Below, piece after piece: positions 20,892 through 44,983 of a DNA stretch of 64,000 nucleotides (within the stretch, counting starts at the first letter, position 1; each line of letters starts with the position of its first letter). The translations under genes and the position numbers were made by a program. The notes under the pieces were generated by a model. The model had not been told where the DNA came from, did not search any database, and saw only the letters and a program-made list of their open reading frames with translations. The stretch is from Eledone cirrhosa. Taxonomy: Eukaryota. Location of the stretch: the NCBI GenBank assembly GCA_964016885.1, contig OZ024741.1, positions 184,698,001 to 184,762,000 of the forward strand, given 5' to 3'.

Positions 20892-20986
20892 TTTGCCTTT
20901 CATCCTTACGGGGTCGATAAAATAAAGTACCAGTAATGCACTGGTTAATTGCTGGCCTTGTGCCAAAAGTCGAAACAATTATTATT
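20892..20986 (+). mobile_element. SINE S1, 5'-truncated (3' half)
   Basis: TTTGCCTTTCATCC...GAAACAATTATTATT. Confidence 0.85.
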
Positions 20987-20987
20987 A

Positions 20988-23810
20988 AAACGAGTAGGGT
21001 GTAGGACCTGGTTACTGGAAGCTGAACATATCACTTACGGCACTTAAGGCTTACAGGGACCGAGTCAACAATTTAGTTAAGCACAATTTGACAGGGGGGA
21101 TCGTCAACAACAGATGGTGGTTGAGGGGGGGGGGCTCTCAAAAGAGAGATTACCGTAACTTCGATAGGGTTCAGCAAAGAACTAGCGTTAGAGAAAAATA
21201 AAAAGGAGGATAAGCTAGTAGATAAGTTACACGAGGCTATTTGTAGTGGCAATCATGCATTGTCAGAGCTAAGGCGCGTGCGCTGTGAAACGAGGGAACC
21301 AAAGCTGTTCGATGGGCTCGCGTGGCGGAGGCGCAGCGTGGTAATAAAACCACAATTCGGTCTTTGGCGGACCGAGACGGACACAGGATAAGTGATTCCA
21401 AGCGGATGTGTGAAGCCTTTCGCCAGCACTTTTCTCGGTTGTTCAGGGAGAGTGGCGGGTCAGAGAGATTAGCGGATTTCAGTCCCTACCTTGACGGCTT
21501 GCCGCGCATCTCGAAAGTCGAAGCTGAGCGCTGCGAAAGGCCGATTACTTCAGCCGAAATTTAGGACGCCCTTGTCGGCTGCATGAGGCGCAAGTCACCC
21601 TGTTTGGATGGCCTGCCCTACGAACTTTACGTAAATATGCTAGACTTGTTCTCCGATATCCTCGAAGCCCTCTACTGCAACTGGCAGCAGAATGGGAGTA
21701 TTCCCAGTCCTGTGAGCAGGGGAGTGGTGACGCTGATGAGAAAAGACGATAACAAGAGGGATACATTAGCCAACTACAGGCCCGTAACTCTGCTTAACAC
21801 AGTTTAAGATTTTAGCCAAGGTGCTAACAAAGAGATTGGCGCTTGCCGTCGAGGATTTGGTTGGGGAGGCGCAAACTTGCGCAATCCCAGCCAGGTCCTT
21901 ACACGACAACATCCACCTCATATAGAGAGGGTAGGGTGTAAACCTGGCTTCGGTGGGGCACTGATCAATTTAGATCAATCGAAAGCATTCGATAGAGTCG
22001 ACCATCGGTATTTGTCCTCAAAGCAGCTGGCTTCGGCCCTCTCTTCAGAAGCTGGATCACTGCAATGCACAGCGGCACCTGCTCAGTGATCAAGGTTAAT
22101 GGACATTTCTCGGAACCGGGTCGGTCCAAGAGTTCCCTCTCTCTTCCCTTCTGTACGTATTGACACTCGAGGTTTTACAGAATGGAGGAGACAGGGCATC
22201 CCTGACGGATGGAATGCATGATTTGGAATGGCTCTGATAGGTAGCCATTCACCTTGACTGCCGAGCAGATGGTGGTGTGCACGGCAGCGATCCAGCCTCT
22301 GAAGACGGGACCGAAGCTCGGAACCTTGAGAGGCAAGTCCATGCCGCCCAACAGCGTCGTGGGGCGCTGGACGGACCGGTAAATTTGCACGGGGTTTGTT
22401 TTGGACCAGACCTCCAGGTGGAAAAGAATTCGGACGAGGTAACGAGCAAGGTAGCCTGTCTCACCCAAAAATGGGGTGCGAGGAAGCTATCACTGAAAGG
22501 TCGCGCGGAGGTGGAGAATGCGTGCATCGCATCTGTCATCTACTACCGCCTGACCATTGCGCCTTGCCCCTGTCCGCACCTCGCCAAGATGGAACGGCTC
22601 CTCTTCAAATTCTTGTGGAGAGGACAAGTTCCGTTGGAGAGGCGGTCCATCTGCTGCCAGCACCCTCTGCGCGGAGGGCTGGGCATGCCGTGGCTAATGA
22701 TGCGCAGACATGCACTGAGGCTCCGACATCTCCAGATATTCTGCTTAAACGGTGAACAGGTGTGGTCGCCGTTTATCAGACGGGCCTTTCCACAGCTCGT
22801 TTCTTTGACTGAGCTGCAGTCCTGTCCTGGTTGGATGAAGAAACTGAGACTGGGTGACTAGCACCTGGAATGTTACCAGGCACCTACTGCCCTCTACTAA
22901 GCGGGCAATGCGATCAGTGGAACTTCCACTCTCGTGTTCTATAGAGGATAAGTGGTGGGCACGTGCGATGACGCACTCGGAGTAGCTTTGGGCCTCGACG
23001 AAGTCGAACTACCCAGTCTGTTCTGGAGGTCTTTCGAGCCGAGGACGATGGACAGTTTCTAGAAATCCCTCGCTTGGTAGTGCTACCAGGGGGCATTGTC
23101 GGTTTGGGTTAAACTCTACAGGCACGGAAGTGCTGTCAGGCGGACCTGCCCGAGATGCGCACAGAGCGACGAAACCGTTCTGCACGCAGTAGTCCAATGT
23201 CTGTGCATTACTGACTTGTGGAGTTATGTCGAACAGCTACTCTCGCGTGTAGAACGGATCCGGCTATCGGCCCGCCGCCCTCCTTTGGCCAGGAAGTGCA
23301 GGCAATTTTCCTCTGTCTGGTGGCAGTTGCGAAAGAGGTTATATGGTGGACCAGATCGAAAGGACTGAAGACAGACACTTTTCTCTTCGGCCAATGCCTC
23401 ATCAACTTCTTCAAATTTCACCTGAAAAGTAAGATGAGGGTGGAGAGAGAAGTGCTTCCCCCCAGTACATTTGGTAAAAGGTGGATGAATGTGGCGAGAA
23501 TCGCCCGTGTGTTGGGCCTACACTGACCTTGCGCCTATAGGCTAGCTAATTTGAAGAGAGGGGTGCTCCCCTGGGTGCCCTAGAAGCGCAGGGTGGTTCA
23601 GGATCGGTGGGGTACCTGAGTCAACCCTGGATTGTCCACCCCTATAGAGAAAATATTTTGTTATATTTATGCACAGTTTATTTTATATTTTTATATCTTC
23701 ATTGTTAAATTAGTCTTGCCATTTTTACTAGACCTTATTGTAAACCCCCACTATCTGTGTCTTTGTATTGTACCCTACATGTCGGCCTTGTGGCCAATAA
23801 ATGTGAATCA
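20988..23810 (+). mobile_element. Tx1/L1-clade LINE, 5'-truncated and degenerate, with an internal inverted segment
   Basis: GPGYWKLN, KSPCLDGLPYELY, NYRPVTLLN, LDQSKAFDRVDHRYL, LSLKGRAEV, RGGLGMP, CPRCAQSDETVLHAVVQC; 3' end GGCCTTGTGGCCAATAAA. Homologous to the copy at 23915-29654. Confidence 0.88.
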
Positions 23811-23914
23811 TTTGCCTTTCATCCTTACGGGGTCGATAAAATAAAGTACCAGTAATGCTCTGGGTAATTGCTGGCCTTGTGCCAAAAGTAGAAACAATTA
23901 TTATTATTATTATT
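23811..23914 (+). mobile_element. SINE S1, 5'-truncated, with (ATT)n tail
   Basis: Starts at the same base as the 20892 fragment. Confidence 0.85.
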
Positions 23915-24093
23915 GGTCTATTCGGACGTCTTTTTGTTCGCTCCCAGTAAGTCGCTTTATTTACCTGTTATAATTATTTGTTGTTAAATGTTTCTTGTTG
24001 AGTTAGGGATACAAGCCCTTGGACTTTGCGCTGTGAAGGGGAAAGTATAATATTTGGGCCTTTTAAAACTTTTAAAAATGTTTTAAAGAAAAC

Positions 24094-25900
24094 ATGGCCG
24101 AGCCACGCCCCTATCCCCCACCCCAGCAATAGGTCTGCTGTCGTGTGACAACGGAGTAAAAGTTGAGAGGAGTGTTACAGAAATTGATTCAACAACACCC
24201 CCACAAACAACGTGATCAAATTCAACAACACTGAGAACACTAATTTAAAAATAATGACCACACCAACTACAACAATAACAACGTCAACCAAAATACAGAC
24301 AACAGAGAAAAATGACAACAAATGCTACAACGAAATTAACACCACTAACAAGAAAATAAACAACGACAACACCAACAGCAACAATACAAATTGCACCGAA
24401 AATAATAACAACAGTGGCACCAAAAACACAACCATCTACAACAGTGATAACAGCAACAACACCAACAACACCTTTTGTAGCAGTAGCAACAACAACAGCA
24501 CCAACAACAAGACCAGTAGCAGTAGTAGCGGCAGCAATAATAGTGCCGCTGAAAAAGGGGCCACTTCTTTCGCAGGTGTGGCCCGCAATATAGAAACAGT
24601 AGAGTTTACCTGAAACCCCCACCCGATTTCTTCAAAGACCAACAGCTGCAAGCAAAATGTCACATCAGGTGGAGAGAGCAACGGAGGCTCAAATCCCAAA
24701 GGCCTTGGGGTGCGTCTGGGCGCGCAGAACCCACATCATTCGAGGCAAAAAGTATGCCACAGTAGACATACTTGCGCGACCCCCCCCCCCCCGAGGCAAA
24801 GTCTCACTCTTTGGAAACCCTAAAGAGTGAGGAGATATTCTTGGACCCCTCCTACTGCGGGCAGAAATTTGTGAGGGTCAAAGTGACCCAGGTCCCGCCC
24901 GACGTGCCCATACCTTGGTTGGCTGCGTCTTTACTTGCTGGAATCAAGGACACCATACTGCAAATACAGAGAATGGGAAGAGAGAACTGGTCAGGTATAG
25001 GCATGCAAATGCTAATACAAATTGAGCAGGAGTTCATCGAGACCACCCCAGATATCATAGACCTCGAGGAAGGACTCCAACTCTCTATAAGCGTGGAAGG
25101 AAGGCGTCCAAAATTCTATCTCTGTGGACAGAAGGATCACCTCAAGGCCTTCTGCCCGCAGAAGACAGCCAAGAAGAGGGCCCCACTCCTTCCGACGCCT
25201 CATCCACTGCTGACAAGAGCAGGGCAAGCAACAGAGGCAGAAGACCGTTCCATGGTGCGTAGGAGGGCAACGTCCGTGGCACCGATACAAAGGCCACGGA
25301 CAACTAAAACAGCGGCAGCAGTGGCGGCAACACCAACAGTCGCAGTAGCTACACCGGCTGCCAAATCGCTGTGGCGGGCTCCACTACCACCAGCAACAGC
25401 CGTGGAGCTCATACCACTCCCAGATGCCATGGAATCCGATATGGAGTATGAGGCGGGAGTGAAGAGGCAAGAGGTCTGCCACAAAAAACAAAAACGAGAA
25501 AAACAATTAGCTTAGCCCTCCAAAAGCGAAGACAAACAAGGAAGGGTAAAGGCTGCAAGGAGACTTGGAGCAACAGCACCACCATCACCACCACAAGCAT
25601 CACCAACAACAACAACCACACCACCACCAGCATCACCAAAAAAACCAACATCGCAAACACAATAAAGTACACACACCCAACAGCAACAACATGAAAACAG
25701 CAACAAAACCACCCCTCCCACCAAAAGTACACAGCCATAAACATTGCACACCAAGGACTACTCAAATTACCACACACCACCAACACCAAGAACATTACCA
25801 AAAACATTAACATAGTGGAAATTTAACTCGAAGACTACAAACAAATAACACAAAAATTCCCCAACTGCGTTGGGTATTCCAGGAGCTCACTCTCCAAGAG
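24094..25900 (+). pseudogene. Tx1 ORF1 (gag-like), frameshifted
   Basis: N/T-rich N-terminus, SFAGVAR motif, degenerate zinc knuckle FYLCGQKDHLKAFC, low-complexity C-terminus. End boundary approximate. Confidence 0.7.
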
Positions 25901-26020
25901 AATCTATAAAGATATCGTCTTTGAGGCACCGATGACCAGCCGAAGAGACGGTTCTACTGTCCCTTCCCCACACGATCAAGGTAAGTGATCCTTTCTCACT
26001 CACCCCGTTCCTCATCCAAC

Positions 26021-29000
26021 ATGGTCGTACTTAGAATAGGCAGTATAAATGTACGTGGCCTGTGGTCATCTTGGAAGCAGGGTCACCTGCTCAACGACAT
26101 TAGATCACTAAACATAGATGTGGTGGCCATCAGCGAGACCAGAATCTCTGAAGTACGAACCTTCGCACCGATATTCGGCGGCTACGATGTATACGCATCT
26201 CCCAGCCGTCCATGATCGAGGTGGGGGGGAGTTGCTGTGCTTTTTCGGAGAGGTTTCGATCTCGCCATACGGGCCATTTTCCTGGACCCAAAAGGAAAGT
26301 CGGTGGTGCTGGACGTGACCGGCAGCGAAGGCAATGCGTTCAGGCTAGTAGCCGTCAATACCCCAACAGGAGCAGGACGTCTAGATTTCTTCAGACGTCT
26401 AGAGACCTTTCTTGGATCGTCCCGCTCTTTAGTGTTAGTGGCTGGCTGAAACGGTATCTTAGTTGCATGCTGGTATTATGTGGTGCTAGTAGACAGGGCA
26501 GGAGGGTGTAAAAGCCTCAACAACCTTCTTAGGCGTTTTGAACTGTCTGACAGGTATAGACTAGGTTATCCGAATGTGCCAATGTGGACATGGGCAAACT
26601 GCATCGTGTCATCCAGATCATATTTAGATAGGGTATTATGTAAGGAAACAGATAAGGCTAGTGTAGGTTGTTCACATTTTAAAGTAGTCGACTACACGGA
26701 CCACAAATTTGTAATCTGTGAAGTTGACATAGATAGACTCCATAGGCAAGGGCCCGGTTACTGGAAGCTGAACGCATCGTTCCCGGTGCGCATAACTTAC
26801 AGAGACCGGATCAGCGAATCAGTTAAGCGTGCGTAGACGGGTGCGATCGAGGAGGTGGTTTACCCTGAAAAGGGCTATTAGAGTAGAATCCATAAGGTTT
26901 AGTAAAGGAGTAGTGATAGAGAGAAATAGAGTAGAGGGAGAGTTAGTTAGAAATCTAGAAGAAGCGTTTAGGACAGGCATCACAACCGACGTGCTTGCAG
27001 CGAGATTGGCACTCGACCAATTCTTCACCGCAAAGCGTTGTCAGAGCGCGTGCTCTAAGACGCGAGGTGACGAAAGCCGTTCAATGGGCTCGGGTGGTGG
27101 AGGCGCGACGTGGCAACAAGTCTACAATTCGGTCTTTGCCTGATCAAAACGGGCGCATGTTGCTCGAACCCGAGCAGATGTGTGCGGCTTTTCAACAGCA
27201 CTTAGCTCAATTGTTCGGGGGGTGGGGGGATCGGGGTATGGACTTCGGTGCATACCTCGACGGACTGCCGCAGCTCTCGACGATCACAGCGCAGTGCTGT
27301 GGAAAGCCTATAACAGCAGGTGAAATACGGGAAGCGATGTCTGACTGCACGAGGGGTAAATCGCCAGGTTTGGATGGTCTGCCCTACGAGCTTTATGCGT
27401 ATATGTCAGACTTGTTCGGTGACCTCTTGCCAGATGTCTCTACTGCAATTGGCAGCAGAACGGAATCATTCCAAGTTTTGTGAGCCGGGGAGCGGTGGCG
27501 CTGCTGAGAAAAGAGCCGAACAAGGTGGACGTTATAGACAACTTCAGGCCCATAACTCTGCTAAACGCATAGTTTAAGATTTTGGCCGAAGTGTTAGCAA
27601 AAGATTAGCGCTTGTCGTCGGTGATTTGGTGGGAGAGGCGCAGATATGCGCCATTCCGGACAGATCCATCCACGACACCTCCATCTCATGCGATACATCA
27701 TAGAAATGGTGGTTAAGGAACCTGGCACGGATGGGGCCCTGATCAACTTGCATCAATCTAAAGCATTTGATAGGGTCGACCATCGGTACCTGGCTGTGGT
27801 CCTCGAGGAGGCCAGCTTCGGGCCCATTTTTAGGGGCTGGATTGCTGCGATGCACAGCGACATGTGCTCGATTGTGAGGGTGAATGGTCACCTGTCGCAG
27901 CCTTTCAGCATCATGCGCTCGGTCCGCTAGGGTTGCCCCCATATCGTCCCTCATGTACGTACTGGCCCTGGAGCCGTTACTGCACAAATTGGAGACGATG
28001 ACAAACCCACGCGAACTGGGATGCTGGAGATCCGGGTCAGCCTACCCCGACACGTCACCGTGATGGTGTCGATCACCAAACTTGTCCAGATGCTCGGCAC
28101 CACTCTCAAGGAATACGAAGCGGTGACAGGAGCAAAGATAAACCAGGAAAAGTTGGTGGGCTTGCAGCTCGGCACCTGGAGAGGCAAGTCCATGCGGTCC
28201 GACAGCGTCGTGGGGCTTTGGACGGAAGGACCGGTTAAATTTCTCGGTATCTGGTTCGGTCCGGTCCTCCAGATGGAGAAAAACTGGAGCGAGGTGACGA
28301 GCAGGGTGGCCTCCCTCACCCAGAAATGGGCTGAGAGGAAGCTGTCCCTGAAAGGCCGGGCGGAGGTGGCGAATGCGTACATAGCGTCCGTCATCGGGTA
28401 CCGCCGGACCGTTGTACCTTGCCCCCGCCCAACTCTGACCAAATTGGAGCTTCTTCTCTTCCGTTTTTAATGGAAGGGGCGTGCTCTGATGGTCAGAAGA
28501 TCCATTTGCTGTCAACACTCGTTGCGTGGAGGACTAGGCATGCCGTGGCTGATGATGCGGTGAGGCTGCGACATCTCTGGTGCTTTCTTGACGGTGAACA
28601 GGTGTGCTTGCCATTTGCCAGACGCGCTTTTTCCCAGCTCGTCTCCTTGACGGATCTGAAGTCTTGGAGCAGGAAAAGACCGAGGGATAGCGCTTGGAAG
28701 CTGGAATGTCTCCAAGTGCTCACCGCCCTCTACCAGCTGGGTACTAGTATCGGTGTAATATCCACCTGGGCGTTCTATAGAGGGCTAGTGCAGGGAAAGA
28801 GTGACGACACTTTCGGGGAGACCCTTGGCGTCGAAGACGATCAGCTGTTCGCTGTCTTTAAGAGAAATTTCAGACCGGGGCCTATGGACAACTTCCAGAA
28901 ATCCCTGGCCTGGCAGTGCTACCGGGGAGCGTTGCCGGTTCGGGATAAGCTCTACAGGCACGGAGGTGCTGTCAGCCCAGCCTGTCCGAGATGCGCACAG

Positions 29001-29383
29001 GACGACGAAACCGTCCTGCACGCACTCGTTCAGTGCCAGAGGATTGCTGACTTGTGTAAGTGTCGAACAGCTGCTGTCGCGTGTAGGATGGTCTCACCAT
29101 TGTGCAGATGGTCTCACCGTCTTCCTTCGAGGAGGAAGATCAGGCAGTTTTCATCTGCCTGGTGGCCATGGCGTAAGAGATTGTGTGGTGGACAAGGTTG
29201 AAAGGGTTGAAGACGGATACTTTCCTCTTCGGCCAATCCCTGATTAACTTTTTCAAGTTTCACTTGAAGAGGAAAATCAGGGTGGAGAGGCAAGTGTTGT
29301 CTTGTAGTAAGTTTATTGAAAGTTGGGTGAAAGGGGCGAGTCTAGTCCGAGTGAACGGGCTCGCCCTGAGTATGCGCTTGTAG
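26021..29383 (+). pseudogene. Tx1 ORF2: AP endonuclease + reverse transcriptase + zinc knuckle, disrupted
   Basis: MVVLRIGSINVRGL, DVVAISET, SRSYLDR, TDH, GPGYWKLN, GKSPGLDGLPYELY, NFRPITLLN, SKAFDRVDH, SVRxGCP, CPRCAQDDETVLHALVQC. Many stops and frameshifts; YADD region not recognisable. Confidence 0.9.
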
Positions 29384-29793
29384 ACTGAGTAGTGGCAAAA
29401 CTGAGAGAGGGCGCTTGCTCTGGTGGTCAGGGTGGCCTTGGTCTTTTTTGTGGTTTTCGCCACGAGTGGCCCTCGGAAGTTTCCCCCCCTATTTGGGAAT
29501 TTTTGTTGTTTGAATTTTTTTGATATTTCTATTTTTTTTACACGGCCAAAACCCACTTTCTATCGTCCTGTACCCTTCTGTGCCGTCTGTACTGTTTTTC
29601 TTCATGTTAGGCCTTGTGACCAATAAAGAAACCATTATTATTATTATTATTATTGAATGAATATGGTTTTATAAATATAGTTTCCATTTATTTAATATCA
29701 TTGAATATTTACTCCATAAATTTGTCGAGTGCTCTGAATCAGTTATAAACATTTATATTTGTTGAATTTCCAACAAATTAAATATCCCTTCTA

Positions 29794-29844
<51 letters not shown>

Positions 29845-30414
29845 AATATGGGGAGAAGAATACTGCAAGGTTGCACATGGATTACATATTTCAAAAATTA
29901 GCCCCTCATCAGTGATTTGCCAACGATCATTGGTATTTCATCGCATATATATATATATATATATATATAAGGAGCTCTTAAGAGTCAATGGCCATCCAAA
30001 ATCACCGGGAGAGATGACCCCTTAGCCTTTGTCAAGGCAGAATTCTAGGAGAAGGAAAACTCTGATATAACACCTGCAAACCTGATGGTATCCAATGATG
30101 TTGACTTGTTCTTCTTTTTGGTAAATATCATCTTGGTTAAGAGAGTGGGACTGGCTTTGTGCAGTGCCTTTGCTCACTATAAAAGCTTCACGGCACAGGC
30201 ATTGCTTTATATCTGGAGATCTCTCTGCACTTGTCGTCACATGGTACCATGGGCCCAGCACTATGTGTCAACAATTGTCACAAGTGTAGTGTTTGTACCA
30301 GAGTCTTCAAGTCGCTGGCTGGACTAAAAAGTCACACTTGTTCAGCACATCGGTAGGGGTTCTCCTACATGGATATAAAGTAGTGGCCGTACTCGAAAAC
30401 GAGTTGGCAGCCAC

Positions 30415-30500
<86 letters not shown>

Positions 30501-30506
<6 letters not shown>

Positions 30507-31925
30507 TTAGTTAAGCAAAACAAGGCCACAAACTTCACAAGGAAGACATTATTAAAAGATTGTCAACATTTTTTAATTTGATGTAAGGAATGTAGAGAAT
30601 AATAATAATAATATTAATAATAATAATGTCGGTTTACAATTGTTTCGCTACTCCATATGATATTTTTGGATCAGATGACTATATAGCATAATTGATCTGG
30701 TACAGTTGAAAATTATTAAAGTATTTAAAAAACAGAGTGTCTCATCGGACTTCAAAATAATATAAATTAAAATAATGGGATAATGTTACATAATATAATG
30801 TTCCCTATATTGGTTTTTACTATGGTGTCTTGGTTGCATCAGTTGTCAGCCATAATCAAGCAGTATTCAACTGTCGAGGCTGCATTGTGTGAGATCTGCC
30901 TATGGGTAACAAGATGGCTGCCAAGGGCATATTTACCTTACTGACTAGAGGGTGGTTTCAGGGGAAGTAACTTCTCGAGAGATTAGAAATTGTGAGTGTT
31001 TATAGTTAAGTGCTAATTTTTATATTTTTTAATTGAGAGACAATGTAGGGGAGGTAACTTATAATTATCTAAATTGTTCATAGCAATTTAACTTATTAGC
31101 TACAAGTAAAAATGGGGCTACATGACTAAGTTGGGTCAAAAATTCTATTGGCGAAGGAATTTGCCCTTCGATGTTGACAGCTAATAGTTACCTCCGTTCT
31201 ATCGTTAATCGGTAGAGGTCGTGATAGAGTTATGTAATATGCTTCCGTAACACAGAGATCACAAGATTTTCTTCGTCCATTGAACGGTTGGGCCCTAGAC
31301 ACGATATCCCATTTTAGTGAGTGTTGAACGTTGTTTATTTAAGGTTTTTAATGAGCCTAGCTAGCGATGTCGAACATCTGTTGCTAGGGTCTCGCAAGGA
31401 AACAGAGTGCGCATTATAGCGTACCTTAAAAGGGTTAGAGGTAGACTCGATATAGGAGCTGGTATTCGAAGCAGTCTCAACCGTGCACCTATAGACTATG
31501 TTGGGTGTCAGGCAGTGTCCATTTAATGGGCATGCATTGGGGTAACGGCAGTTGCAGTTTTTCTGCGGTTAGTGAGAGTAGGGTAGTTTAAGCTAAGCGG
31601 TAGGTCCGTACTAGAAGGATTAGATGGGGGAGGTATGCTACTAGAGTAATTATTGGTGTAGTGGCATGGTGTATTTGATAGGGGTGGTGGTACCGCGGTG
31701 TGGGAGTTATACTCTCTTAGCTTATGTTGGTTACTGAACGCGATGTGGCTAGCTAGGTTAGGTGTTGACATTAGAATGAGATTTTAATGTTATTTTTATT
31801 AAAGAGCTTGTAATATCTATGGTTGGGGAGGGGGAGAGTGTTTGGATAGGATAGAGAAGAAGCGTTTGGGGATATTAGTGGCTAGTGTAGATGAGAATGG
31901 GGGGGGGGAGCCAAGTGATATTTCC
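30501..31925 (-). mobile_element. Second PLE copy (3' 1.4 kb: GIY-YIG + 3' region), same family as 13801-17498
   Basis: Reverse complement aligns with ~15683-17498 minus the two SINEs; ends at the same AATGAATA base next to (TA)n. Confidence 0.92.
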
Positions 31926-32150
31926 TTGCCACCGAGCAAACTATGGTGCGCTTTCATCAGATAAAATATAATATAGGTTAGTTTTATAAAGGAAATTCCA
32001 ACCAGAATGGTTGCATTTTTTAAGGGTATGTCAATATTTATTTATAAAACTAAACTATATTATATTTTATCTGATGAAAGCGTACCATGAAATATGTATA
32101 ATGAAATAAATATGGTTTTATAAATATAGTTTCTATTAGTTAATATATTG
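31925..32150. mobile_element. Inverted pair of hammerhead-bearing PLE-type terminal fragments (family H1)
   Basis: 31943-31990 is the reverse complement of 32041-32088; 31991-32150 matches 59849-60030. Confidence 0.7.
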
Positions 32151-32170
32151 TACATATGTATATATATATA

Positions 32171-32202
<32 letters not shown>

Positions 32203-32256
32203 TAGGAGAGTGTGCTTGTTTATATATGTGTGTATATATACGACAAACTAGGAGAA

Positions 32257-33169: not shown

Positions 33170-33181
33170 GTTATTGTTATT

Positions 33182-36100
33182 CCTTGAATCTCAGTCATTG
33201 ATGTTGGTTAACTGGAAAGTCCGTTGGATTGAATATCAAGCCACTACCTGCAGCCTCAGATATTCAGGACGTATCGGAGGGTTCTTGCCGTTCCAAGCAA
33301 GCATGCCTTTTGAAGCGTTCCAAAAAGCGTGAAGGGGCCGATTTTCTTTAACCATCCCTGGAAACCTTTGGAGATAGTCCCCAGTGCGCCTATGACAATC
33401 GGGATCACTTTGACTTCATGGCAGTTCCAAATCCTTTTCACCTCCCACTTTAGGTCCTGGTATCGGTTAATTTTCTCCCTCTCCTTCTCTTGCACTCTCG
33501 TGTCGAACGGGCAGGCCACATCCACAATCAGGCACGATCTTTTTTCTTTGTCCACAACCACCAGGTCAGGTCTATTGTGCTCCAGTTTTTTGTCCGTCTG
33601 TATCCTAAAATCCCACAGCACCTTCACCTGACTGTTCTCCATCACCGCCTCTGGCCTATGCTCATACCATTTCTCAGAATGTGGTAGATTGTTTACTTTG
33701 CACAGGTGCCAGTGGATCACCCTGCCCATCACATCGTGTCTCCAGCCCTTATAGTGGGTCTGGGCTAGGTGTTTACACTCGGACACAATGTGAGCCACAG
33801 TCTCCTCTCTCTCTCCACAGATCCTGCACAGTGGGCTAGCCTCCTCCTTGTAGATATGGTGCTTCAACCACTTCGTTTTGAGGGCCTGCTCCTGCGCAGG
33901 CATTAGCATTCCTTCTGTAGCCTTTTTGAGGTCTCCTCTTCTCAACCAGTTCCATGTCTGTGGATCTCTAAATTCAGTTTTCTCAAAGAAGGTACTATGA
34001 AGGGATTTTCCCTTAAGGCTGCTCTTCCTCCTTGATGTTATTTCCTCCTTGGGTATCCCCTGGCCTACTGTCCCCTCCTTCAGTACAGCTCTGAGCATTG
34101 GCTCCTTACTATAGGTCACGTATTTGTATAGGTTGTTTTTCTCCATCTGAACACAGTCCTCTATGCTGATAAGACCTCTTCCACCCTCAGATCTCCTTAG
34201 GTAGAGTCTATCGACATCACTCCTCTTGTGGAACATGTTGTAGATAGTCAATAGCTTCCTAGTCTTCCTATCCATTTCTTTTTGTTCAGCAACATTCCAT
34301 CTCAGAATTCCCGCACTGTACCTAATAATAGACACAGCTCGGGAATTTACTGCGCTTATGGCATTTCTGCTGTTCAGATGTGACTTCAATACGCTCCTTA
34401 CTCTCCGAATGTATTCAGTTCTTAACAATTCCTTCATTTTTTTGTTCTTTATGCCATCAGCCTCCAGAACGCCCAAATACTTGTATCCTTCCTCAGAGTC
34501 AATTTCCTTTATCATCTCACCTGTTGGTATCTGGATCCCGTTACTTCTGCTCAACCTACCCCTCCTCATCACAATGACTCCACATTTACCAATACCAAAC
34601 TGCATACATATATCACTGCTGAAAATACGGACAGTGTCAACAAGCACATCCAACTCCTTCTCACTTTTCCCGAAGAGCTTAAGATCGTCCATGAAGAGGA
34701 GGTGATTGATGGTAAGCTCTCCCCTTCCCAACTTGTATCCTGCTCTCACTTTTCGCAGCATAATGGTCAAGGGCATCAGGGCAAGGACAAACAACAGAGG
34801 GGACAGGCTATCTCCCTGGAAGATACCTCTCTTGATCTTCACGCTTCCCAAGGATACTCCAGTTGATGTCAACTCTGTCTCCCAGGACCCCATACTCCTG
34901 CCCAGCAACTGTCTGATGTTATCTGCCACCCTGAAGATCTCCAGGCTTTTGGTGATCCAGGAATGAGGCACCATGTCAAATGCCTTTCTGTAGTCTATCC
35001 ATCCCATGGCAAGATCAGTGTGTCTCCTCCTGCAATTCCCCATTACCATCTTATCAATAAGCAACTGGTCCTTTGTACCACGTGACTTCTTTCGGCATCC
35101 TTTCTGTTCGTCCGGCAACAAGTTGTTTGTGTGGAGGTGATGGTAGATTTCCTCAGACACAATGCTCGTCAACAGTTTCCACATTACGGGCAGACATGTG
35201 ATAGGTCTATAGTTGGTAACATCATTACCCTTGATTCGGTCTTTCATTATCAGAACTGTGGTACCTTTTGTCAACCACTCTGGCACCTCACCCGACACCA
35301 AGCAGTCATTGAACATGGCCGTCAGCTTCGGGTGGAGGGATGTTAAATGTTTAATCCAATACCCCTGCACACCATCTGGGCCTGGTGATTTCCAGTTGGT
35401 TAGTTTTTTGGCTTGCCCCTTAAGAGTTTCAACTGTGATACTCAAATCAGTCTGTTGCTGTGCCTGCTCACCGATCTCCCTCTGTACTGTCTCAATCCAC
35501 CCTGCCTGGGCATTGTGTCTAACATCCTGCTCCCATATTCTTCTCCAGAATGTTTTAGCTTGTTCCGCCCCAGGGATCAAGTCGTTGCCTCTTTCTTTCC
35601 CCTCAAGCTGTCCAAACAGCATCTTCTGGTTGTTGTCGAACATGCGGTTCTGTTTATACTGACTGACTCTGTTCTCGTATCGCCTGATTTTGGCACTCTT
35701 TGCTACAATGCGTTGCTTCAATTCCTCTATGATAATATTTAGCTTTTTACTCCTAGTTTTGTATTTTATTTCCAGTCTATTTTTAGTGCCTATGTTTTTT
35801 AGTGTCCCATTCAGTAGTGACTCAAGCTTTCCTATGTCATTTCTCATTTCCCCGATTTGCCCACTCAGTCGCTTCTTCCACCACGGCTCTGCTCTTTCTT
35901 GTCTGTTGTTTCCTCTCGCTTTTATACCAAGTAGTTTCCTCACCGTATTTGCTGTTGCTTTGAGGATGTTGTTGCACTGGTGAAGACTCCTCGCCTCAAG
36001 GTATGGGATGACTTTGTTTACCTTAGCTGTTGTTTCTTTTAACTTTTTCCTGTCTACAAATCTTAGGTTCATAGGTCTCCCACTATCATTGTTCAACTCA

Positions 36101-36556
36101 TCTACCACTAAATTTAGGATGTCAACCGAATCTTGTCCTAGCCCGTCAGCATTCATCTCCTCAGTGGCCGTTTCTCTGTTCCAGGTATTATTTATCTCAG
36201 TATTCAGATCATTGTCTGCTTCGGGTGGTTCCTCCGTTCTCAGGACCTCCTCACCTTCATTTCCCGCCGGCTCGCTTGTCTGGCATACTACACCCGCCAT
36301 CTCCAAGCCATTCTCTCTGCTCAGTTCCTCCAGTTCCAGCTCGCTTATCCACCCATTAGTTCTTATTACCCGAGCCTGCCCGGCCAATTTTTGTTCATCT
36401 AATTTAAATAAACCAATCTCGTTCCAGATGTTATGCATCCGTCTCCTGTAGCCCCTCTCCTTGGGGTTACTTTTCAGGTAGCATTGCATAACAGTTCTAT
36501 TCAATTCTTTCGTCCAGTTGGTTCTGGCCCCTTTCCTTCTTCTTCTTCCTCCAACA

Positions 36557-36558
<2 letters not shown>
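33182..36558 (-). mobile_element. R4/Dong-type REL non-LTR retrotransposon, family A, slightly 5'-truncated
   Basis: Single long ORF, short 3' UTR, (TAA)n on both sides in element orientation. Dong elements are known (TAA)n-specific R4-clade elements. Confidence 0.9.
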
Positions 36559-36596
<38 letters not shown>

Positions 36597-36639
36597 AGCT
36601 GCATTTATCTTGCTTTATATTCATACGAGTTATCACCAT
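33256..36639 (-). CDS. Uninterrupted RT + CCHC + PD-(D/E)xK restriction-like endonuclease polyprotein (1127 aa from first in-frame ATG)
   Basis: WKSPGPDGVQGYW, NYRPITCL, EQKG, WIDYRKAFD, GIFQGDSLSPLLF, LLFMDDLKL, YKYLG, GGRGL, CRICGEREETVAHIVSEC, RHD, RPDLVV..IVDVACP..EKINRYQDL. The N-terminal ~27 codons come from the neighbour's 3' UTR and (AAT)n. Confidence 0.9.
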
Positions 36640-38997
36640 GTCACAACCAGTGACCTCAAGAGACAACAAGGTCCGCCATCTTCAAGAAAGAACATACATA
36701 CTCACACATGCATCTTTAGTGTTTAGACTTGTGATCTACTTATATTGACAGATTCTTCCTTAGTATATGGGCAGTTCCCATTAGTACTATCTTTTGTATT
36801 TCTCCTATACGCGGGTTTCCTGGGATTTGCGATAAGTAATCATTAGACCCCTTAGGTATCATTCCTAGAGCGCCTACAACTACTGGTATTGTTTTAGTTC
36901 TCAATTTCCACATTTTTCCAATTTCTATGTCCAGGTCCTTATACTTGCCCAATTTTTCAAATGTTTTTATAGATACATTCTTGTCTATTTGAACGGACAT
37001 ATCAATTAGCAGGCATACCCTCTTTTTAAAGTCCTTCAATATTATATCAGGTCTATTTGCATCTATTTTTCGGTCTGTTTTGATGCTAAAGTTCCACAAG
37101 ATTGAGATGTGATCTTTTTCAAGTATGGGAGGTGGTTGATGCTCCCACCAATTCTTTTGATGGGGCAGGTCAAAATGCTTACACATTATCCAATGTATGT
37201 ATTGTGCAACTCTGTCATGCCTGTTTAGGTATTCGGTTGGACTGAATATTGAAATTATATGGTCAATGGTCTCTGGTTGTTTTTTACATACACGGCACAA
37301 TGGGTTGCATCCATTTTTTATTATGTTGGCTTGGTAATTTTTTGTTAGCAGACACTGATCTTGTGCTGATATAATCAGTCCTTCCGTCTCCGATTTCAGT
37401 CCAGAGGATGCCAACCACTGATGGGTTAAAGTTTTGTCAACATCAGGATTGTTAGCTCGTTCTGGGTATTTTCCATACAGAGGCTTTTCTTGCCATTTCT
37501 TAGCCAGTTTCTGTAGCAGTTCTTTCTTTGCAGTTACTTTTACCTGCTTTGCTTTTTCTGTGTTTTCCATTTCAGCAGTAAATGGGACTTCTGAAATGTG
37601 TAGTCGATTACTGTATCTTTGTGCATCTTTTGTAATGGAATATGATCTTTTGATGCTTTCGTGTTTCAAAACGAGTTTGATCATCCAATCATGTGATTCC
37701 CTTAGATATGTAGATAATCCAATTGTTGCAGTTTTCAACGCAATGTCTAACTGGATTAACCCACGTCCTCCTTCTTTCCTAGGGAGATATATTCTATCTG
37801 TATCTGCCTTAGGGTGATGCATTCTGTGCATGGTTAAGAATTTTCTAATTTTTGTATCGAGCCTACGGATCTCTGTGCTTGACCAGTTGATGACATTGTA
37901 ACTGTAGGTTACTACTGGTATGGCAAGCGTGTTTATGGCATCGATCCTATTCCTTGCATTCAATTCCGTTCTTAACATTGCTCTTACTCTGCGGTAACAT
38001 TCCTTCCTTATCCTTTCCCTCATTGTCGAGTGCTTGATTCCGTCTCCTTCACAAACACCTAGATATTTGTAACTTTCCTCTTGATCAAGTTCTCTTATCA
38101 CATTCCCTCGATCAAGATTAATGTCTGAACTCTTCAGGAGCTTTCCTCTGGTGAACGTTGCTTTGGCGCATTTATATAGTCCAAACTCCATTTTAATGTC
38201 ATCACTGAACTACTCCACAGTGGATAATAGCCCTTGCAATTGTTCATCATTTTTTGCAAAGAGTTTCAGGTCATCCATGTAGAACAAGTGATTAATGGTT
38301 TTATCATAGACTTTATATCCATGTTTTGTTTCATTGAGCATTTTACTTAATGGTATACGTGCGATGCAGAATAAAGCGGTGATAAAGAGTCACCCTGAAA
38401 AATTCCACAATTAATATTAACTTCTCCAGCTTCCAGTGATTTTGTTTCACTATTCAAAAGGAGTGTCGTTTTCCATATCTTCATACTGAATGACAAAAAC
38501 CTCCTGACAACGGGGGATATTTTGAAAATCTCTAAACAATTTTTCAATCCAACTGTGTGGCAAACTATCGAATGCTTTTTTATAATCTATCCAAGCAATT
38601 GATAGATTTTTGTGTCTATTATGACAATCTTCCAGTATCATTTTGTTAACCAAAAGCTGATCCTTACAGCCATATGAGCCTCGTTTACAGCCTTTCTGCT
38701 CAATGGGAAATAGGTCATTTGTTATCAGGTGGTCATATGTATATTCAGTTAGGACTGATGTTAAAATTTTATACATTGTGGTCAAGCAAGTTATCGGTAT
38801 GTAATTTTTGGGATTGTTTGTCTCATCATTCTTCGGAAGCAGGAATGTAATGCCGTTAACTAGCCATGATGGTATCTTTTCTGGCTCCTTAACTATTTCA
38901 TTGTAAAGTTGGGCTAACAGCTCATGAGACTCTGTGAAGGCATTTATCCAAACATTTTGTATTTTGTCCTTTCCTGGGGAATTCCATTTGCTGGTTT
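36596..38997 (-). mobile_element. R4/Dong-type element, family B, copy B1 (5'-truncated, frameshifted)
   Basis: ORFs 38450..39136, 38347..38547, 36740..38191; HLFYMDDLKLF at ~38260-38295; RHD and RPD motifs. Confidence 0.9.
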
Positions 38998-39035
38998 TAT
39001 TATTATTATTAATATTATTATTATTATTATTATTA

Positions 39036-42000
39036 CAGTTGCATTTATCTTGCTTTATGTTCATACGAGTAATCACCAAGTCACAACCAATGACCTCAAG
39101 AGACAACAAGGTCCGCCAATATTCAAGAAAGAACATACATACTCACACATGCATCTTTAGTGTTTAGACTTGTGATCTACTTATATTGACAGAATCTTCC
39201 TTAGTATATGGGCAGTTCCCATTAGTACTAACTTTTGTATTTCTCCTATACGCGGGTTTCCTGGGATTTGCGATAAGTAATCATTAGACCCCTTAGGTAT
39301 CATTCCCAGAGCGCCTACAGCCACTGGTATTGTTTTAGTTCTCAATTTCCACATTTTTCCAATTTCTATCTCCAGGTCCTTATACTTGCCCAATTTTTCA
39401 AATGTTTTTATAGATACATTCTTGTCTATTGGAACGGACATATCAATTAGCAGGCATACCCTCTTTTTAAAGTTCTTCAATATTATATCAGGTCTATTTG
39501 CATCTATTTTTCGGTCTGTTTTGATGCTAAAGTTCCACAAGATTGAGATGTGATCTTTTTCAAGTATGGGAGGTGGTTGATGCTCCCACCAATTCTTCTG
39601 ATGGGGCAGGTCAAAATGCTTACACATTATCCAATGTATGTATTGTGCAGCTCTGTCATGCCTGTTTAGGTATTCGGTTGGAGCTATAGGACTGCACATT
39701 GAAATTATATGGTCAATGGTCTCTGGTTGTTTTTTGCATATACGGCATAATGGGCTGCATCCATTTTTTATTATGTTGGCTTGGTAATTTTTTGTTGGCA
39801 GACACTGATCTTGTGCTGATATAATCAGTCCTTCAGTCTCCGATTTCAGTCCAGAGGATGCCAACCACTGATGGGTTAAAGTTTTGTCAACATCAGGATT
39901 GTTAGCTCGTTCTGGATATTTTCCATACAGAGGCTTTTCTTGCCATTTCTTAGCCAGTTTCTGTAGCAGTTCTTTCTTTGCAGTTACTTTTACCTGCTTT
40001 GCTTTTTCTGTGTTTTCCATTACTATATCTTTGTGCATCTTTTTTAATGGAATATGATCTTTTGATGCTTTCGTGTTTCAAAACGAGTTTGATCATCCAA
40101 TCATGTGATTCCCTTAGATATGTAGATAATCCAATTGTTGCAGTAAAGAGTCACCCTGAAAAATTCCACAATTAATATTAACTTCTCCAGCTTCCAGTGA
40201 TTTTGTTTCACTATTCAAAAGGAGTGTCGTTTTTCCATGTCTTCATACTGAATGACAAAAACCTCCTGACAACGGGGGGTAGTTTGAAAATCTCTAAACA
40301 TTTTTCAATCCAACTGTGTGGCAAACTATCGAATGCTTTTTTATAATCTATCCAAGCAATTGATAGATTTTTGTGTCTATTATGACAATCTTCCAGTATC
40401 ATTTTGTTAACCAAAAGCTGATCCTTACAGCCATATGAGCCTCGTTTACAGCCTTTCTGCTCAATGGGAAATAGGTCATTTGTTATCAGGTGGTCATATG
40501 TATATTCAGTTAGGACTGATGTTAAAATTTTATACATTGTGGTCAAGCAAGTTATCGGTATGTAATTTTTGGGATTGTTTGTCTCATCATTCTTCGGAAG
40601 CAGGAATGTAATGCCGTTAACTAGCCATGATGGTATCTTTTCTGGCTCCTTAACTATTTCATTGTAAAGTTGGGCTAACAGCTCATGAGACTCTGTGAAG
40701 GCATTTATCCAAAAATTTGGTATTTTGTCTTTTCCTGGGGATTTCCATTTGCTGGTTTTTCTTAGAGCCAAGCGCAACTGTTCAACTGTGTTATATTTTC
40801 CCATATTTGTTCCTCAAGTTGAGCTGTCTGTCCATGGGGCATGTATGTTATAAACTTTTTCTTCGGCCCAGATCTTTTCCCAGAATTCTTGCACTTCCTT
40901 CTTGGGTGGTATTGATTTAGCAGTTATTGTTGACTTACCAATTTTTCTGTAGAAGTTTCTTTGGTTGTTTTTGAACATATTATTGTCCTTATAGAATCTA
41001 GATCGTTTTTCAAAGCGCCTTATACGAGCAGCTTTGGCCGACACTTTTTGCTTGATTATTTCTATCAGCATGTCTATGTCACTTGTTGATTTTATACTGT
41101 ACTTTCTTTTCAATTTTCTAAGTTGAGTTTGTTTAACATGTTCACCTACTTTATAGTTTGTTAAAATTTCTATGTCAGATCGGAGAACGTTTATTTGTCG
41201 ATTGATGTTCTCTTGCCAAGTAGATTTCTTGTGGCAATTCCTTTGTCTTTTCATCTTCACTCCACATATGTGAGTGGTGACTTTATGCGATGCATTATAG
41301 AGATGATTTAAATCAGTAATGTTTAGTTTGTTTGTGATGATAATGTTTTTGAGAATTATGTTAGTCTTGTGTATTATCTTTCGGTTCTGTTTGGAGTTCT
41401 GGATCTTAGGGAGGGTGTCTCGTTGCCCCATGTCAGATTCTTTCATTTTCATCCATTCGATCATAATTTCATCCTTCAAGTTGGCAAGTTCATTCTCATT
41501 CATTTCTTTATCATTTACGATCTCATTATTTTCATTTGGAGTTTCATCTTGAGCATGCACTCCCTCCACTTTTTCGATCCTTTCTTTAATTTGTTCTGTT
41601 GCCAGTGATTCCGCCCCAACCCTGGGATTCGAAGTGTTACAATTTACCTCGGTTTCACTGACACATGTTTCATTTTCCCTTCGCTGACTTTGTGGTAATA
41701 GTTTGATCTGATCAATTTCTATATGAGTTAGTAACTTTTTTTTTACAATATTTCTTCGTATATTGGCTAGTTTGTTACTGTCAATATAGCCTCTGTTTTC
41801 GGGATGTTTCTTTTTCCAGTTGATATATGTCTGTTCTGTATTCGATGTATTTGATGGGTAGTACATGGCAGTGTAGAAAGCCTCAAGGACTTCTTTATTA
41901 TCTTCCCTTGACCATTTTTCTCTCTTTTTCTTTGGATTTCTTTGTGGTGAGCATGGAGGGCCAACGGTAGGAGTATTCCGGTTATGGGAGGTCTCCAGCT

Positions 42001-42292
42001 CCGAAGTGATGGGAAGGTTTGAACGATTAGCTGATTTTTCGACCCCAGTCTGGTTCCTCTCTGAGGGACGCGGCCCTCTTTTACCCGGGTGGCGGCCGAT
42101 CCGGTATGAGATGTTATCATTAGACATTTACTTTATTTTGTCGTGTTTTATCCTTATCCGCCAAGGGGTAATAATTCCGTGTTACCACTTCTAGAACGAG
42201 TGTCAACCAAGACTAGAGGGGTCGTTCTCCCATAGAGACACGGCTATTCCCCGCCGGCCGCCATCCCGGTATTTCTTGGTCACGGGGTTTTC
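39036..42292 (-). mobile_element. R4/Dong-type element, family B, copy B2 (5' end retained, internal RT deletion)
   Basis: ORF starts MSNDNISYRIGRHPGKRGPR at 42127; REKWSREDNKEVLEAFY. The junction at ~40145 joins QGDSL directly to TATIGL. Confidence 0.9.
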
Positions 42293-43266
42293 TTTTTTGT
42301 TGTTTTTTTAATTTGTTATTATCATGAGTGGTTCCTTAATGTGAGCATTGCGTGGGTTAAGAATGAAATTATTAATAATTGTCTCCACTCCAGGCACAAG
42401 GCCAGCAATCATCCAGTGCATTACAATAATATAATATACTTTTTGCCGAAGTTGCCTGTTATTGTTGTTGGCTATGTCGGTGGTGGTGCTGGGGCCTTTT
42501 ATATTGTTGGTGAGGAAGGGGGGAGCCAGCAGTGCCATAGTTGTTGACGTTTGGCCGGTGGCTGGGTCACTAAGTCAATCTATTCATATCTTTTGCTAGC
42601 CTCTCCCTTGTCTAGTGATACCGCCACCTTCCCCTTTCTTAAGTTAACAGGGGAATAGTGGTGGTAGCAATGAAGGAGTGGTGGCGGCGGTGATGGGATA
42701 GTGGTAGCAATGATGGATGGAGTGGTGGCGGCGGTGACGTTGTCGTTACTGAGTTTTGTAGAATGGACTAGTTTTGTTTGATCTGTAGTATCTATGCGTT
42801 TGTGTCGCGTATGTTTAATATATGTGTTGACATATTCCCGTAATATTGGAATTAAACATTTTGTTAAAACTTGAGACAATAATAATAGTAATTATTATTA
42901 TGATGCTGAGATTGGTGGTGGTGGTGGTGAAATTGCCGTTATCTGGCTGTTATATTTAGTGTACACAGCGGGGTGATGGGGTAGGTGGTGTATCAAGTTT
43001 CTGGTGTTGGTGAAATTGCTGTTATTTGGCTGTTCTATATAGTGTAGACAGAGGGGGTTTTCTTCCATTTATAACCATTTTCTTTTTTGAATATAAAATA
43101 TATAATACAAAATTGAATATTTGAGCGATATAACAATATATTATGGATCCGAAATTTTATGAGACTTGATTCGGTGGTTTATGCATCATTTGTACTAAGA
43201 ATTGTTATGTCATAATTGATTTAAATATGTTAAAAATTAAAAACTTACCGGAGCGATTTCATGACC

Positions 43267-43324
<58 letters not shown>

Positions 43325-43453
43325 TGTTACATCCTCTGTTTTTGTTTTTTACACGCAGAAATGCCCATTTGTACCGTCCTGTATTGTCCTGTACTGTCCT
43401 TAATGTCTACTTTATGTAAACCCTTGTGGTTAATAAAGAAAGCATTATTATTA

Positions 43454-43503
<50 letters not shown>
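43325..43503 (+). mobile_element. Tx1-related 3'-end fragment embedded in (ATT)n
   Basis: TGTATTGTCCTGTAC...CCCTTGTGGTTAATAAAGAAAGC(ATT)n, with (ATT)n also upstream (43267-43324). Confidence 0.6.
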
Positions 43504-43504
<1 letters not shown>

Positions 43505-44935
43505 AGTTGCATTTATCTTGCTTTATGTTCATACGAGTTATCACCAAGTCACAACCAGTGACCCCAAGAGACAACAAGGTCCGCCATGTTCAAGAAAGAA
43601 CATACATACTCACACATGCATCTTTAGTGTTTAGACTTGTGATCTACTTATATTGACAGAATCTTCCTTAGTATATGGGCAGTTCCCATTAGTACTATCT
43701 TTTGTATTTCTCCTATACGCGGGTTTCCTGGGATTTGCGATAAGTAATCATTAGACCCCTTAGGTATCATTCCCAGAGCGCCTACAACCACTGGTATTGT
43801 TTTAGTTCTCAATTTCCACATTTTTCCAATTTCTATCTCCAGGTCCTTATACTTGCTCAATTTTTCAAATGTTTTTATAGATACATTCTTGTCTATTGGA
43901 ACAGACATATCAATTAGTAGGCATACCCTCTTTTTAAAGTCCTTCAATATTATATCAGGTCTATTTGCATCTATTTTTCGGTCTGTTTGGATGCTAAAGT
44001 TCCACAAGATTGAGATGTGATCTTTTTCAAGTATGGGAGGTGGTTGATGCTTCCACCAATTCTTTTGATGGAGCAGGTCAAAATGCTTACACATTATCCA
44101 ATGTATGTATTGTGCAACTCTGTCATGCCTGTTTAGGTATTCGGTTGGAGCTATAGGACTGCACATTGAAATTATATGGTCAATGGTGTCTGGTTGTTTT
44201 TTGCATACACGGTATAATGGGCTGCATCCATTTTTTATTATGTTGGCTTGGTAATTTTTTGTTGGCAGACACTGATCTTGTGCTGATATAATCAGTCCTT
44301 CAGTCTCCGATTTCAGTCCAGAGGATGCCAACCACTGATGGGTTAAAGTTTTGTCAACATCAGGATTGTTAGCTCACTGGGTATTTTCCATACAGAGGCT
44401 TTTCTTGCCATTTCTTAGCTAGTTTCTGTAGCAGTTCTTTCTTTGCAGTTACTTTTACCTGCTTTGCTTTTTCTGTGTTTTCCACTTCAGCAGTAAATGG
44501 GACTTCTGAAATTTGTAGTCCATTACTGTATCTTTGTGCATCTTTTGTAATCGAATATGATCTTTTGATGCTTTCGTGTTTCAAAACGAGTTTGATCATC
44601 CAATCATGTGATTCCCTTAGATATGTAGATAATCCAATTGTTGCAGTTTTCAACGCAATGTCTAACTGGATTAACCCACGTCTTCCTTCTTTCCTAGGGA
44701 GATATATTCTATCTATATCTGCCTTAGGGTGATGCATTCTGTGCATGGTTAAGAACTTTCGAATTTTTGTATCGAGCCTACGGATCTCTGTGCTTGACCA
44801 GTTGATGACATTGTAACTGTAGGTTACTACTGGTATGGCAAGGTGTTTATGGCATCGATCCTATTCCTTGCATTCAATTCCGTTCTTAAGATTGCTCTTA
44901 CTCTGCGGTAACATTCCTTCCTTATCCTCTCCCTC

Positions 44936-44936
<1 letters not shown>
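43504..44936 (-). mobile_element. R4/Dong-type element, family B, copy B3 (3' 1.4 kb)
   Basis: ORFs 43648..44331 and 44369..44746 near-identical to B1/B2; (TAA)n on both sides. Confidence 0.9.

Positions 44937-44983
<47 letters not shown>

Follow-up and report, generated by a model that had tools for sequence, protein, structure and literature searches.

In a window of 64,000 nt from Eledone cirrhosa (GenBank assembly GCA_964016885.1, contig OZ024741.1, forward-strand positions 184,698,001 to 184,762,000; all window coordinates count from its first letter), retroelements of three lineages meet on one simple repeat, ATT/AAT. They are long interspersed elements (LINEs) of the Tx1 clade with an apurinic-type endonuclease (APE), a short interspersed element (SINE), and R4/Dong LINEs with a restriction-like endonuclease (REL). 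Tx1 families and the SINE insert at ATT read on their sense strand, Dong inserts oppositely in the same duplex, the two enzymes likely nick opposite strands, and the duplicated targets are likely used again. We give this reading a probability of about 80%. The targets, the orientation, the target duplications, the register of neighbouring elements and the re-use of sites were read directly from the copies.

Copies were collected from the 3.0 Gb genome as a systematic sample of 80 stretches of 10 kb (800 kb), an additional systematic sample of 20 stretches of 10 kb (200 kb), and targeted sets of the 30 best BLAST hits each. A 5' flank was scored for (ATT)3 within the 25 nt upstream, with a background of 0.31% at random positions. 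All 29 full-length Tx1a copies of the targeted genome-wide set were preceded by (ATT)3 or more on the sense strand. For Dong A the flank was TAA in 28 and GAA in 2 of 30 copies; for Dong B (n = 29) it was TAA in 19 and GAA in 3, seven flanks were unscored (four of these resemble alignment breaks in the untranslated region, UTR), and ATT did not occur. Both Dong families together had TAA at 47 of 59 5' ends and ATT at none. Tx1c (7 distinct sites) and a fourth type of 5' end (12 sites) began without exception at ATT↓G, the arrow marking the junction, and two Tx1 target duplications included unique bases (loci L015 and L021). In a control family of RTE elements with a (GAT)n tail, none of 17 truncated 5' flanks had ATT or TAA, and GAT adjoined none of them; the 5'-flank test thus tells targets from tails.

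The orientation was equally constant. Where a 5' end abutted a tract, it lay on the predicted strand for 153 of 155 ends in the targeted loci, in 27 of 30 cases in the 800-kb sample and in 9 of 9 cases in the additional 200 kb. Polarity and stack counts exclude loci that overlap the window or are duplicates (L001, L031, L041, L042, L141, L171, L201); L201, a locus distinct from the window, was kept in the 5'-flank counts, and two Dong-labelled matches in the 800-kb sample proved to be SINE tails and were removed. Searching the genome with the 3' end of Dong A or with either the 3' or the 5' end of Tx1c gave no matches, though copies were common in the sample, and these families were analysed via other loci. 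Across the 27 Dong B tails we found a same-sense Dong 16 times, a reversed Tx1 7 times, a reversed SINE 3 times and nothing recognisable once. Across the 29 Tx1a tails there was a same-sense SINE in 10 cases, a same-sense Tx1 in 4, a reversed Dong in 3 and nothing in 12. The forbidden neighbour orientation was seen across none of these 27 and 29 tails. A preliminary description of the window had proposed a common target with fixed opposite polarity and had made it depend on 5' flanks and orientation; both now bear it out genome-wide.

The window itself contains a 12-kb pile (33018–44981) of a SINE (+), Dong A (−), Dong B1 (−), Dong B2 (−), a Tx1c fragment (+) and Dong B3 (−), each followed by a tract. 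At its left end, the tail of a 5'-truncated SINE (33018–33136, + strand) shares the tract 33137–33181 tail-to-tail with the 5'-truncated Dong A (36567 to 33182, minus strand); 33137–33169 is the repeat on the plus strand, and 33170–33181 is the imperfect tail of Dong A itself. A (TAA)n tract at 36559–36595 separates the tail of the 5'-truncated B1 (38996 to 36596, minus strand) from the 5' end of Dong A, and another at 38997–39035 separates the B2 tail from the B1 5' end. B2 (43266 to 39036, minus strand) is nearly full length, with about 26 nt of its 5' end gone and an internal deletion of about 0.65 kb at 40144. Since B2 extends to 43266, it has the tract at 43267–43324 as 5' flank, in common with the Tx1c fragment (final 130 bp only, 43313–43443, + strand), which lies head-to-head with it, and every joint in the pile is an ATT/AAT tract. 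The Tx1c fragment and the 5'-truncated B3 (44935 to 43504, minus strand) share 43444–43503 tail-to-tail, and (TAA)15 at 44936–44981, the 5' flank of B3, forms the right end.

The pile sits in a local inverted duplication that was found nowhere else in the genome. Its outer flank Y (44982–45255, + strand) has a sole close genomic copy, inverted, at 32257–32509 (93%). The inverted paralog of the outer ends (32257–32741, minus strand) comprises a full SINE (32741 to 32559), (ATT)5 and flank Y and is, judged by this alignment, the unfilled version of the pile's site. It is one of three empty/filled paralog pairs within the window. The coordinates of tracts and elements given in the preliminary description were all reproduced, among them the head-to-tail Dong copies through 36559–36595 and 38997–39035 and the tail-to-tail joints of SINE with Dong A and of Tx1 with Dong B3. 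Amendments concern the B2 5' end, the number of Tx1 families and two SINE ends. Intact SINE 3' ends do generally finish in ATT, but one SINE end, at 32888, is followed by AAT and lies inside a fold-back rearrangement (32783–33128). The SINE tail at 42366–42424 does not stand as an independent SINE: it is a captured 3' tail in sense orientation that belongs to the Dong B 5' UTR, where it occurs in 28 of 30 B 5' loci, the other two being truncated past that piece.

A second chain (20888–29654) runs head-to-tail on the + strand as SINE, Tx1b, SINE and Tx1a. The 3' half of a SINE (20888–20977) is followed by ATTATTATTA at 20978–20987, and the 5'-truncated Tx1b (20988–23810, with an internal inverted piece near 22194–22318) starts inside this ATT. 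Immediately after the Tx1b 3' end lies a 5'-truncated SINE (23811–23896), whose (ATT)6 at 23897–23914 is common to its own 3' end and to the 5' end of Tx1a. The start of a Tx1 copy in this SINE tail, noticed before, was confirmed; the junction is ATT↓G as in other full-length copies. The Tx1a copy (23915–29633) is full length but broken, with an ORF1 remnant (24766–25515) and an ORF2 that encodes APE (from 26021), reverse transcriptase (RT) and zf-RVT with many stops, and it ends in (ATT)7 at 29634–29654. As a separate observation, 20760–20891 is the 3' end of another, unclassified repeat, other copies of which terminate in TTCATTATTAT. The chain starts inside this repeat, and at L022 a Tx1a occupies the same place in it.

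The target of the SINE turned out to be shorter than a microsatellite. Among 67 full-length SINEs in the sample, ATTAT formed the first five bases past the 3' end in 55, and no more than two ATT units followed in 62. A target duplication was found for 38 copies (8–27 bp, mostly 12–16); it starts at that ATTAT and runs on into unique sequence, so that the SINE "tail" is mostly target and the target a short motif. The base preceding the called duplication was C or T in 36 of 38 cases, and just 4 of the 38 duplications started with (ATT)3. The pad of the SINE is the short motif C↓ATTAT, and its supposed specificity for the microsatellite had to be given up. Two full SINEs (both + strand) in a Penelope-like element have empty paralogs at 30515–30776. 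The copy at 16833–17017 has an 18-bp target duplication starting ATTATTTT, and its paralog at about 30776 contains just two ATT units. The copy at 17190–17374 has a 19-bp duplication and lies in the internal ATT run of the element, which was already present in the paralog at 30592–30632. This Penelope-like element (14000–16830, 30515–31924; L061) has the internal run as its own feature, and the SINE insertions are in one window copy.

The head of the SINE is tRNA-like, with A and B boxes recognised by eye, and the element may resemble octopus SINEs (OR1/OR2/OK). Its 3' end shares with three Tx1 families the sequence CCTTGTG in a stem-loop of 3–4 bp with compensatory changes, followed by GAAANC. 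This common stem-loop and the same duplication start suggest that Tx1 is the likely partner whose enzyme the SINE borrows. A lineage of ATT-targeting Tx1 with its own SINE, as proposed earlier, is therefore supported, but not as one family. By sequence identity at least three Tx1 families are involved, represented by the three window pieces a, b and c, which are 71–76% alike.

Re-use of sites was evident from the duplications. Around tandem SINEs at L100, L114 and L139 the same duplication occurs three times, as predicted by successive use of one site; L139 involves two different subfamilies. A SINE followed the end of a SINE or Tx1 in 14 of 67 cases, against 2–3% expected from sequence, or 4–7% with both duplicates included (in either case p of about 1e-4 or below). 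Dong B tails adjoined another member in 26 of 27 cases, compared with 23 of 61 long tracts (Fisher p = 7e-8), and Tx1a 5' ends, read by hand, in 22 of 29 compared with the same 23 of 61. Nesting was thus in excess of chance. In the 800-kb sample these families make up about 10% of the DNA (Tx1 5.7%, SINE 2.6%, Dong 2.0%) and abut 34 of the 61 ATT tracts of at least 15 bp. The commonest stack was Dong after Dong, in 37 of 112 two-sided tracts.

The traffic between the lineages was uneven. In 18 tail-to-tail pairs, a set biased to young Dong, the younger element was Dong in 12 and Tx1 in 2, with 4 ties; in seven pairs from outside the Dong searches and the window it was Dong in 4 and Tx1 in 2, with one tie. 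At L150 and L151 the SINE duplication covers the first bases of Tx1a, so the SINE inserted second there. None of 21 SINE/Tx1 target duplications reached into a Dong end, and long tracts would mask any. The evidence is good that Tx1/SINE insertions feed Dong and that each side feeds itself; that Dong in turn feeds Tx1 is plausible, with weak support. The earlier statement that the lineages "feed one another" holds for Tx1/SINE to Dong and for Dong to Dong, but the relation is asymmetric.

The catalytic motifs of APE and REL are conserved. In the mechanism we propose, the Tx1 APE would nick the AAT strand and the Dong REL the ATT strand, and enzymes choosing opposite strands would lead one to expect fixed polarity from target-primed reverse transcription. 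Tx1 ORF2p would nick opposite C↓ATTATT and prime on an RNA ending in AUU, with the top-strand cut 12–18 nt further. At the new 3' junction, the terminal GAAANC of the element would recreate the C↓ATT context, with the 5' duplicate left intact, so that a single target is turned into two. Through the common 3' stem-loop (loop CUUGU), the SINE likely draws on the Tx1 protein; it would accept short ATTAT sites and in this way duplicate such seeds in an estimated half a million places. Tx1 copies of full length were found exclusively after at least three ATT units. Dong would enter longer tracts internally and leave tract on either side. Piles would then grow mainly by Dong inserting into Dong, by Dong inserting into Tx1 and SINE tails, and by Tx1 and SINE inserting into each other's junctions. 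It is a doubtful further step that these processes form a self-amplifying loop, in which Tx1 and SINE duplicate ATTAT seeds, the seeds become tracts, Dong inserts from the opposite strand and lengthens them, and Tx1 re-enters. On that view, long ATT microsatellites and about a tenth of the genome would stem mainly from the loop.

Several findings weigh against this reading. The targeted sets are best BLAST hits and are therefore biased toward young, intact copies. Among truncated Tx1a copies with the truncation inside the locus, an ATT 5' flank was present in 7 of 16. In the 800-kb sample, the 5' ends of three SINEs lay beside a tract with the wrong polarity. No duplication was detectable at 29 of the 67 full SINEs, and the held-out set had one at 3 of 9. 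The shared stem-loop was drawn from the same nine sequences that were used to score it. Entry of Tx1 or SINE into tracts made by Dong rests on 2 of the 18 age comparisons. We infer the nick sites and strands, the pairing of the RNA end with the freed primer and the use of Tx1 ORF2p by the SINE from sequence features. No true orthologous empty allele was seen; when three contig sets were compared with 28800–46200, repeat copies swamped the signal and no usable empty allele was obtained. Finally, 27 of the 61 long tracts had no end of these families beside them, which indicates that slippage and other repeats supply pads too.

These 27 tracts of at least 15 bp also fit an explanation by independent targeting, in which tracts arise by slippage and piles are insertions that survived in repeat-rich neutral DNA without true feeding; the Penelope-like element and another repeat likewise have ATT runs of their own. 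We consider this improbable. Across one tract, neighbours meet with base precision, keep their register and hold a fixed orientation, and at Dong B tails they far exceed what the pool of tracts would give. The triple target duplications mean that one site was used repeatedly, and the window pile arose from a SINE-(ATT)5 site that is unfilled in the paralog. Far less credible still is the assumption that the repeats are synthesised tails only and that ATT versus TAA is coincidental. It does describe the RTE control, in which nothing on the 5' side corresponds to the (GAT)n tail, and Dong tracts in the window (33 + 46 bp) exceed the paralogous empty site (15 bp), so that some repeat was added upon insertion. 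For the three lineages it was refuted by the empty paralogs, which already contain the target, by the counts of 5' flanks with ATT or TAA in the predicted sense, and by the RTE control.

Head-to-tail Dong arrays could also have arisen in single events, if the RT switched to the 3' end of another RNA. Such template jumping is known for R2, and a Dong followed by (TAA)n and a truncated Dong, the commonest stack, is the structure expected of a jump; the 5' UTR start common to Dong A and B likewise points to template exchange. We nevertheless regard it as an unlikely origin of the arrays, which mix divergences (87, 99, 97 and 92% identity to the reference at L382), and it cannot produce the tail-to-tail joints of Tx1 or SINE with Dong that were found at 10 of 27 Dong B tails. 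Dong arrays may owe something to template jumping; the differing divergence of neighbours argues for successive insertion, as in the reading that we prefer.

The assignment of Dong to the R4/Dong clade followed from a single ORF with a central RT and a C-terminal CCHC motif and REL. The window copy of Dong A has an open frame of about 1100 aa to a stop at 33256, with a possibly Myb-like N-terminus, RT, CCHC and REL, and its 3' end is 100% identical to the nearest sampled copies. An intact Dong A at L120 encodes 1131 aa with RT, CCHC and REL motifs and a predicted R2-like fold. The motifs CRxCG..H..EC, RHD and PD..D..KE.EK...Y are conserved among 32 aligned Dong proteins, RVT_1 was matched, and the best matches by sequence and fold were R2 proteins. 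Unlike R2, none of the 32 aligned proteins has an N-terminal zinc finger (C2H2/CCHC-like, first 330 aa). The N-terminus has a conserved four-helix block (residues 48–119) with a pLDDT of about 85 in the whole-protein model, a candidate for the divergent Myb/SANT-like domain of the clade; up to an E value of 1, the 25 Pfam families listed for the whole protein included no Myb family. None of the 120 homologs listed is named as Bombyx mori Dong or Ascaris R4. P0001 was considered as a fused Dong and rejected, as it shows an internal duplication instead.

Between Dong A and Dong B, identity is 38% across 524 aligned C-terminal residues. Over the first approximately 330 nt they are alike (78%) and begin at one sharp start base, as seen at 42940–43266 (minus strand) of the window, L178 and L205; to judge from this alignment, the families likely swapped 5' UTRs. 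The sharp common 5' start was present in 30 of 59 copies. In some Dong copies, full-length ones as well as truncated ones (L032, L120, L172, L186, L188, L194, L202, L208, L210), a (GAA)n stretch separates the 5' end from (TAA)n; it may be a second target or slippage on the first bases of the element. An HDV-like ribozyme at the 5' end is demonstrated for B. mori Dong in the relevant passage of PMC3774820. Rfam gave no ribozyme match in the window, where the Dong copy lacks its first 26 nt, and a ribozyme descriptor did not match the Dong 5' end (folding z 1.09).

For Tx1, an intact copy of family c (L140) encodes Exo_endo_phos (APE), RVT_1 and zf-RVT with conserved catalytic residues. The two-ORF layout with APE, RT and zf-RVT in ORF2 is that expected of the Tx1 clade in the L1 group, and the best relative among solved structures was L1 ORF2p (E 2e-52). 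The closest named homolog was a protein of Argonauta hians (73%). In a quick RT tree, from which the Tx1a and Tx1b copies were left out as too broken and which was built without Kibi and Koshi, Tx1c-type copies grouped with the Argonauta protein (99), sister to an unnamed group (100). The enclosing assemblage (84) included a protein annotated as TX1 149 kDa and U2-flanked Keno-like loci; the U2-flanked loci L241, L244 and L248 formed a separate branch (99). The flanks of the elements described here are ATT and not U2 snRNA, as they would be for Keno, and their target is (ATT)n and not the (TC)n or (TTC)n of Kibi and Koshi. A metagenome scan found distant Tx1 relatives only (~30%), with an ATT tract at 0 of 20 examined of 80 loci, a result uninformative on the close group. 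In the same scan, L244, L241, L248 and L245 carried Tx1-type elements beside U2 snRNA (Keno-like) and 5S rRNA sequences. The fourth 5' end type, apparently Tx1, always stood after (ATT)n (L022, L038, L076, L088, L105, L197, L199, L202, L203, L211, L215, L229).

Further observations concern the surroundings. The block 32088–45463, with its inverted flanks and the SINE fold-back at 32783–33128, interrupts a high-copy repeat, and the joined form of this repeat is common in read sets. Joints of 32087 to 45464 were considered as an empty allele and rejected, as they show merely the whole block interrupting that repeat. At two Dong junctions (33256–36681 and 38450–39142, minus strand) the frame continues from the 3' UTR of the upstream copy through a poly-Asn tract into the next copy; a meaning of this read-through was rejected, since it is probably chance (1 in 9). 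The control RTE family with its (GAT)n tail, a young one (L311–L340), mostly sits in (TA)n tracts, and long, nearly pure (TA)n-rich arrays occur in the window at 50160–50840, 51140–51620 and 18040–19020.

Each part of this system has a close precedent: Dong on (TAA)n and microsatellite-targeting Tx1 are already known. L1 and Alu insert into earlier poly(A) tails, where duplication and tail recreate the endonuclease site, leading to clustering and to the seeding of microsatellites. Unlike that case, the target here is a trinucleotide, and what an insertion leaves behind also serves, from the opposite strand, an endonuclease of a second and unrelated class. Like R4-clade Dong of B. mori and of other insects, molluscs, cnidarians and ostracods, the elements described here encode RT and REL in one ORF, lack an N-terminal zinc finger and target (TAA)n. 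They differ in that two such divergent families have one common 5' UTR start, in their nesting with elements of an unrelated clade in one and the same repeat, and in the few 5' junctions with (GAA)n. According to a passage of PMC7998251, (TAA)n is what Dong targets in the majority of insects, molluscs and cnidarians, and a passage on Octopus vulgaris (PMC13282606) lists Dong-R4 and L1-Tx1 among recently active LINEs and itself gives no targets.

Tx1 families on microsatellites are described, in the pertinent part of PMC4494074, as Kibi on (TC)n, Koshi on (TTC)n and crocodilian families on (TTCC)n/(TTTC)n. The Tx1 lineage of E. cirrhosa resembles them as an APE-type two-ORF LINE with a microsatellite target and fixed orientation; unlike them it targets (ATT)n and not a pyrimidine repeat. 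It groups with the Argonauta protein and with unnamed proteins at about 48% identity, in a comparison made without Kibi and Koshi sequences. According to the same source, SINEU of crocodilians was inferred to be moved by Tx1-Mar from a common target preference and shows tandem insertions at its target (PMC4494074). The SINE described here likewise has a probable Tx1-clade partner and tandem insertions at its target. Unlike SINEU, it has a tRNA-like head, shares an actual 3' stem-loop and GAAANC with its LINE, and targets a short motif and not a transposon.

Our literature search, which did not extend to Repbase and subscription journals, found no ATT-targeting Tx1, no tail-sharing SINE for it and no common target of Tx1 and Dong. 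To the Tx1 clade this adds (ATT)n, a target that is likely new, and a SINE as partner with a common tail. APE and REL enzymes likely converge on one duplex from opposite strands and provide a clean pair for the recognition of simple repeats by unrelated nucleases. As the families account for about a tenth of the sampled DNA and lie beside more than half of the long ATT tracts, the rule may help to explain repeat hot spots and the origin of microsatellites in octopods.

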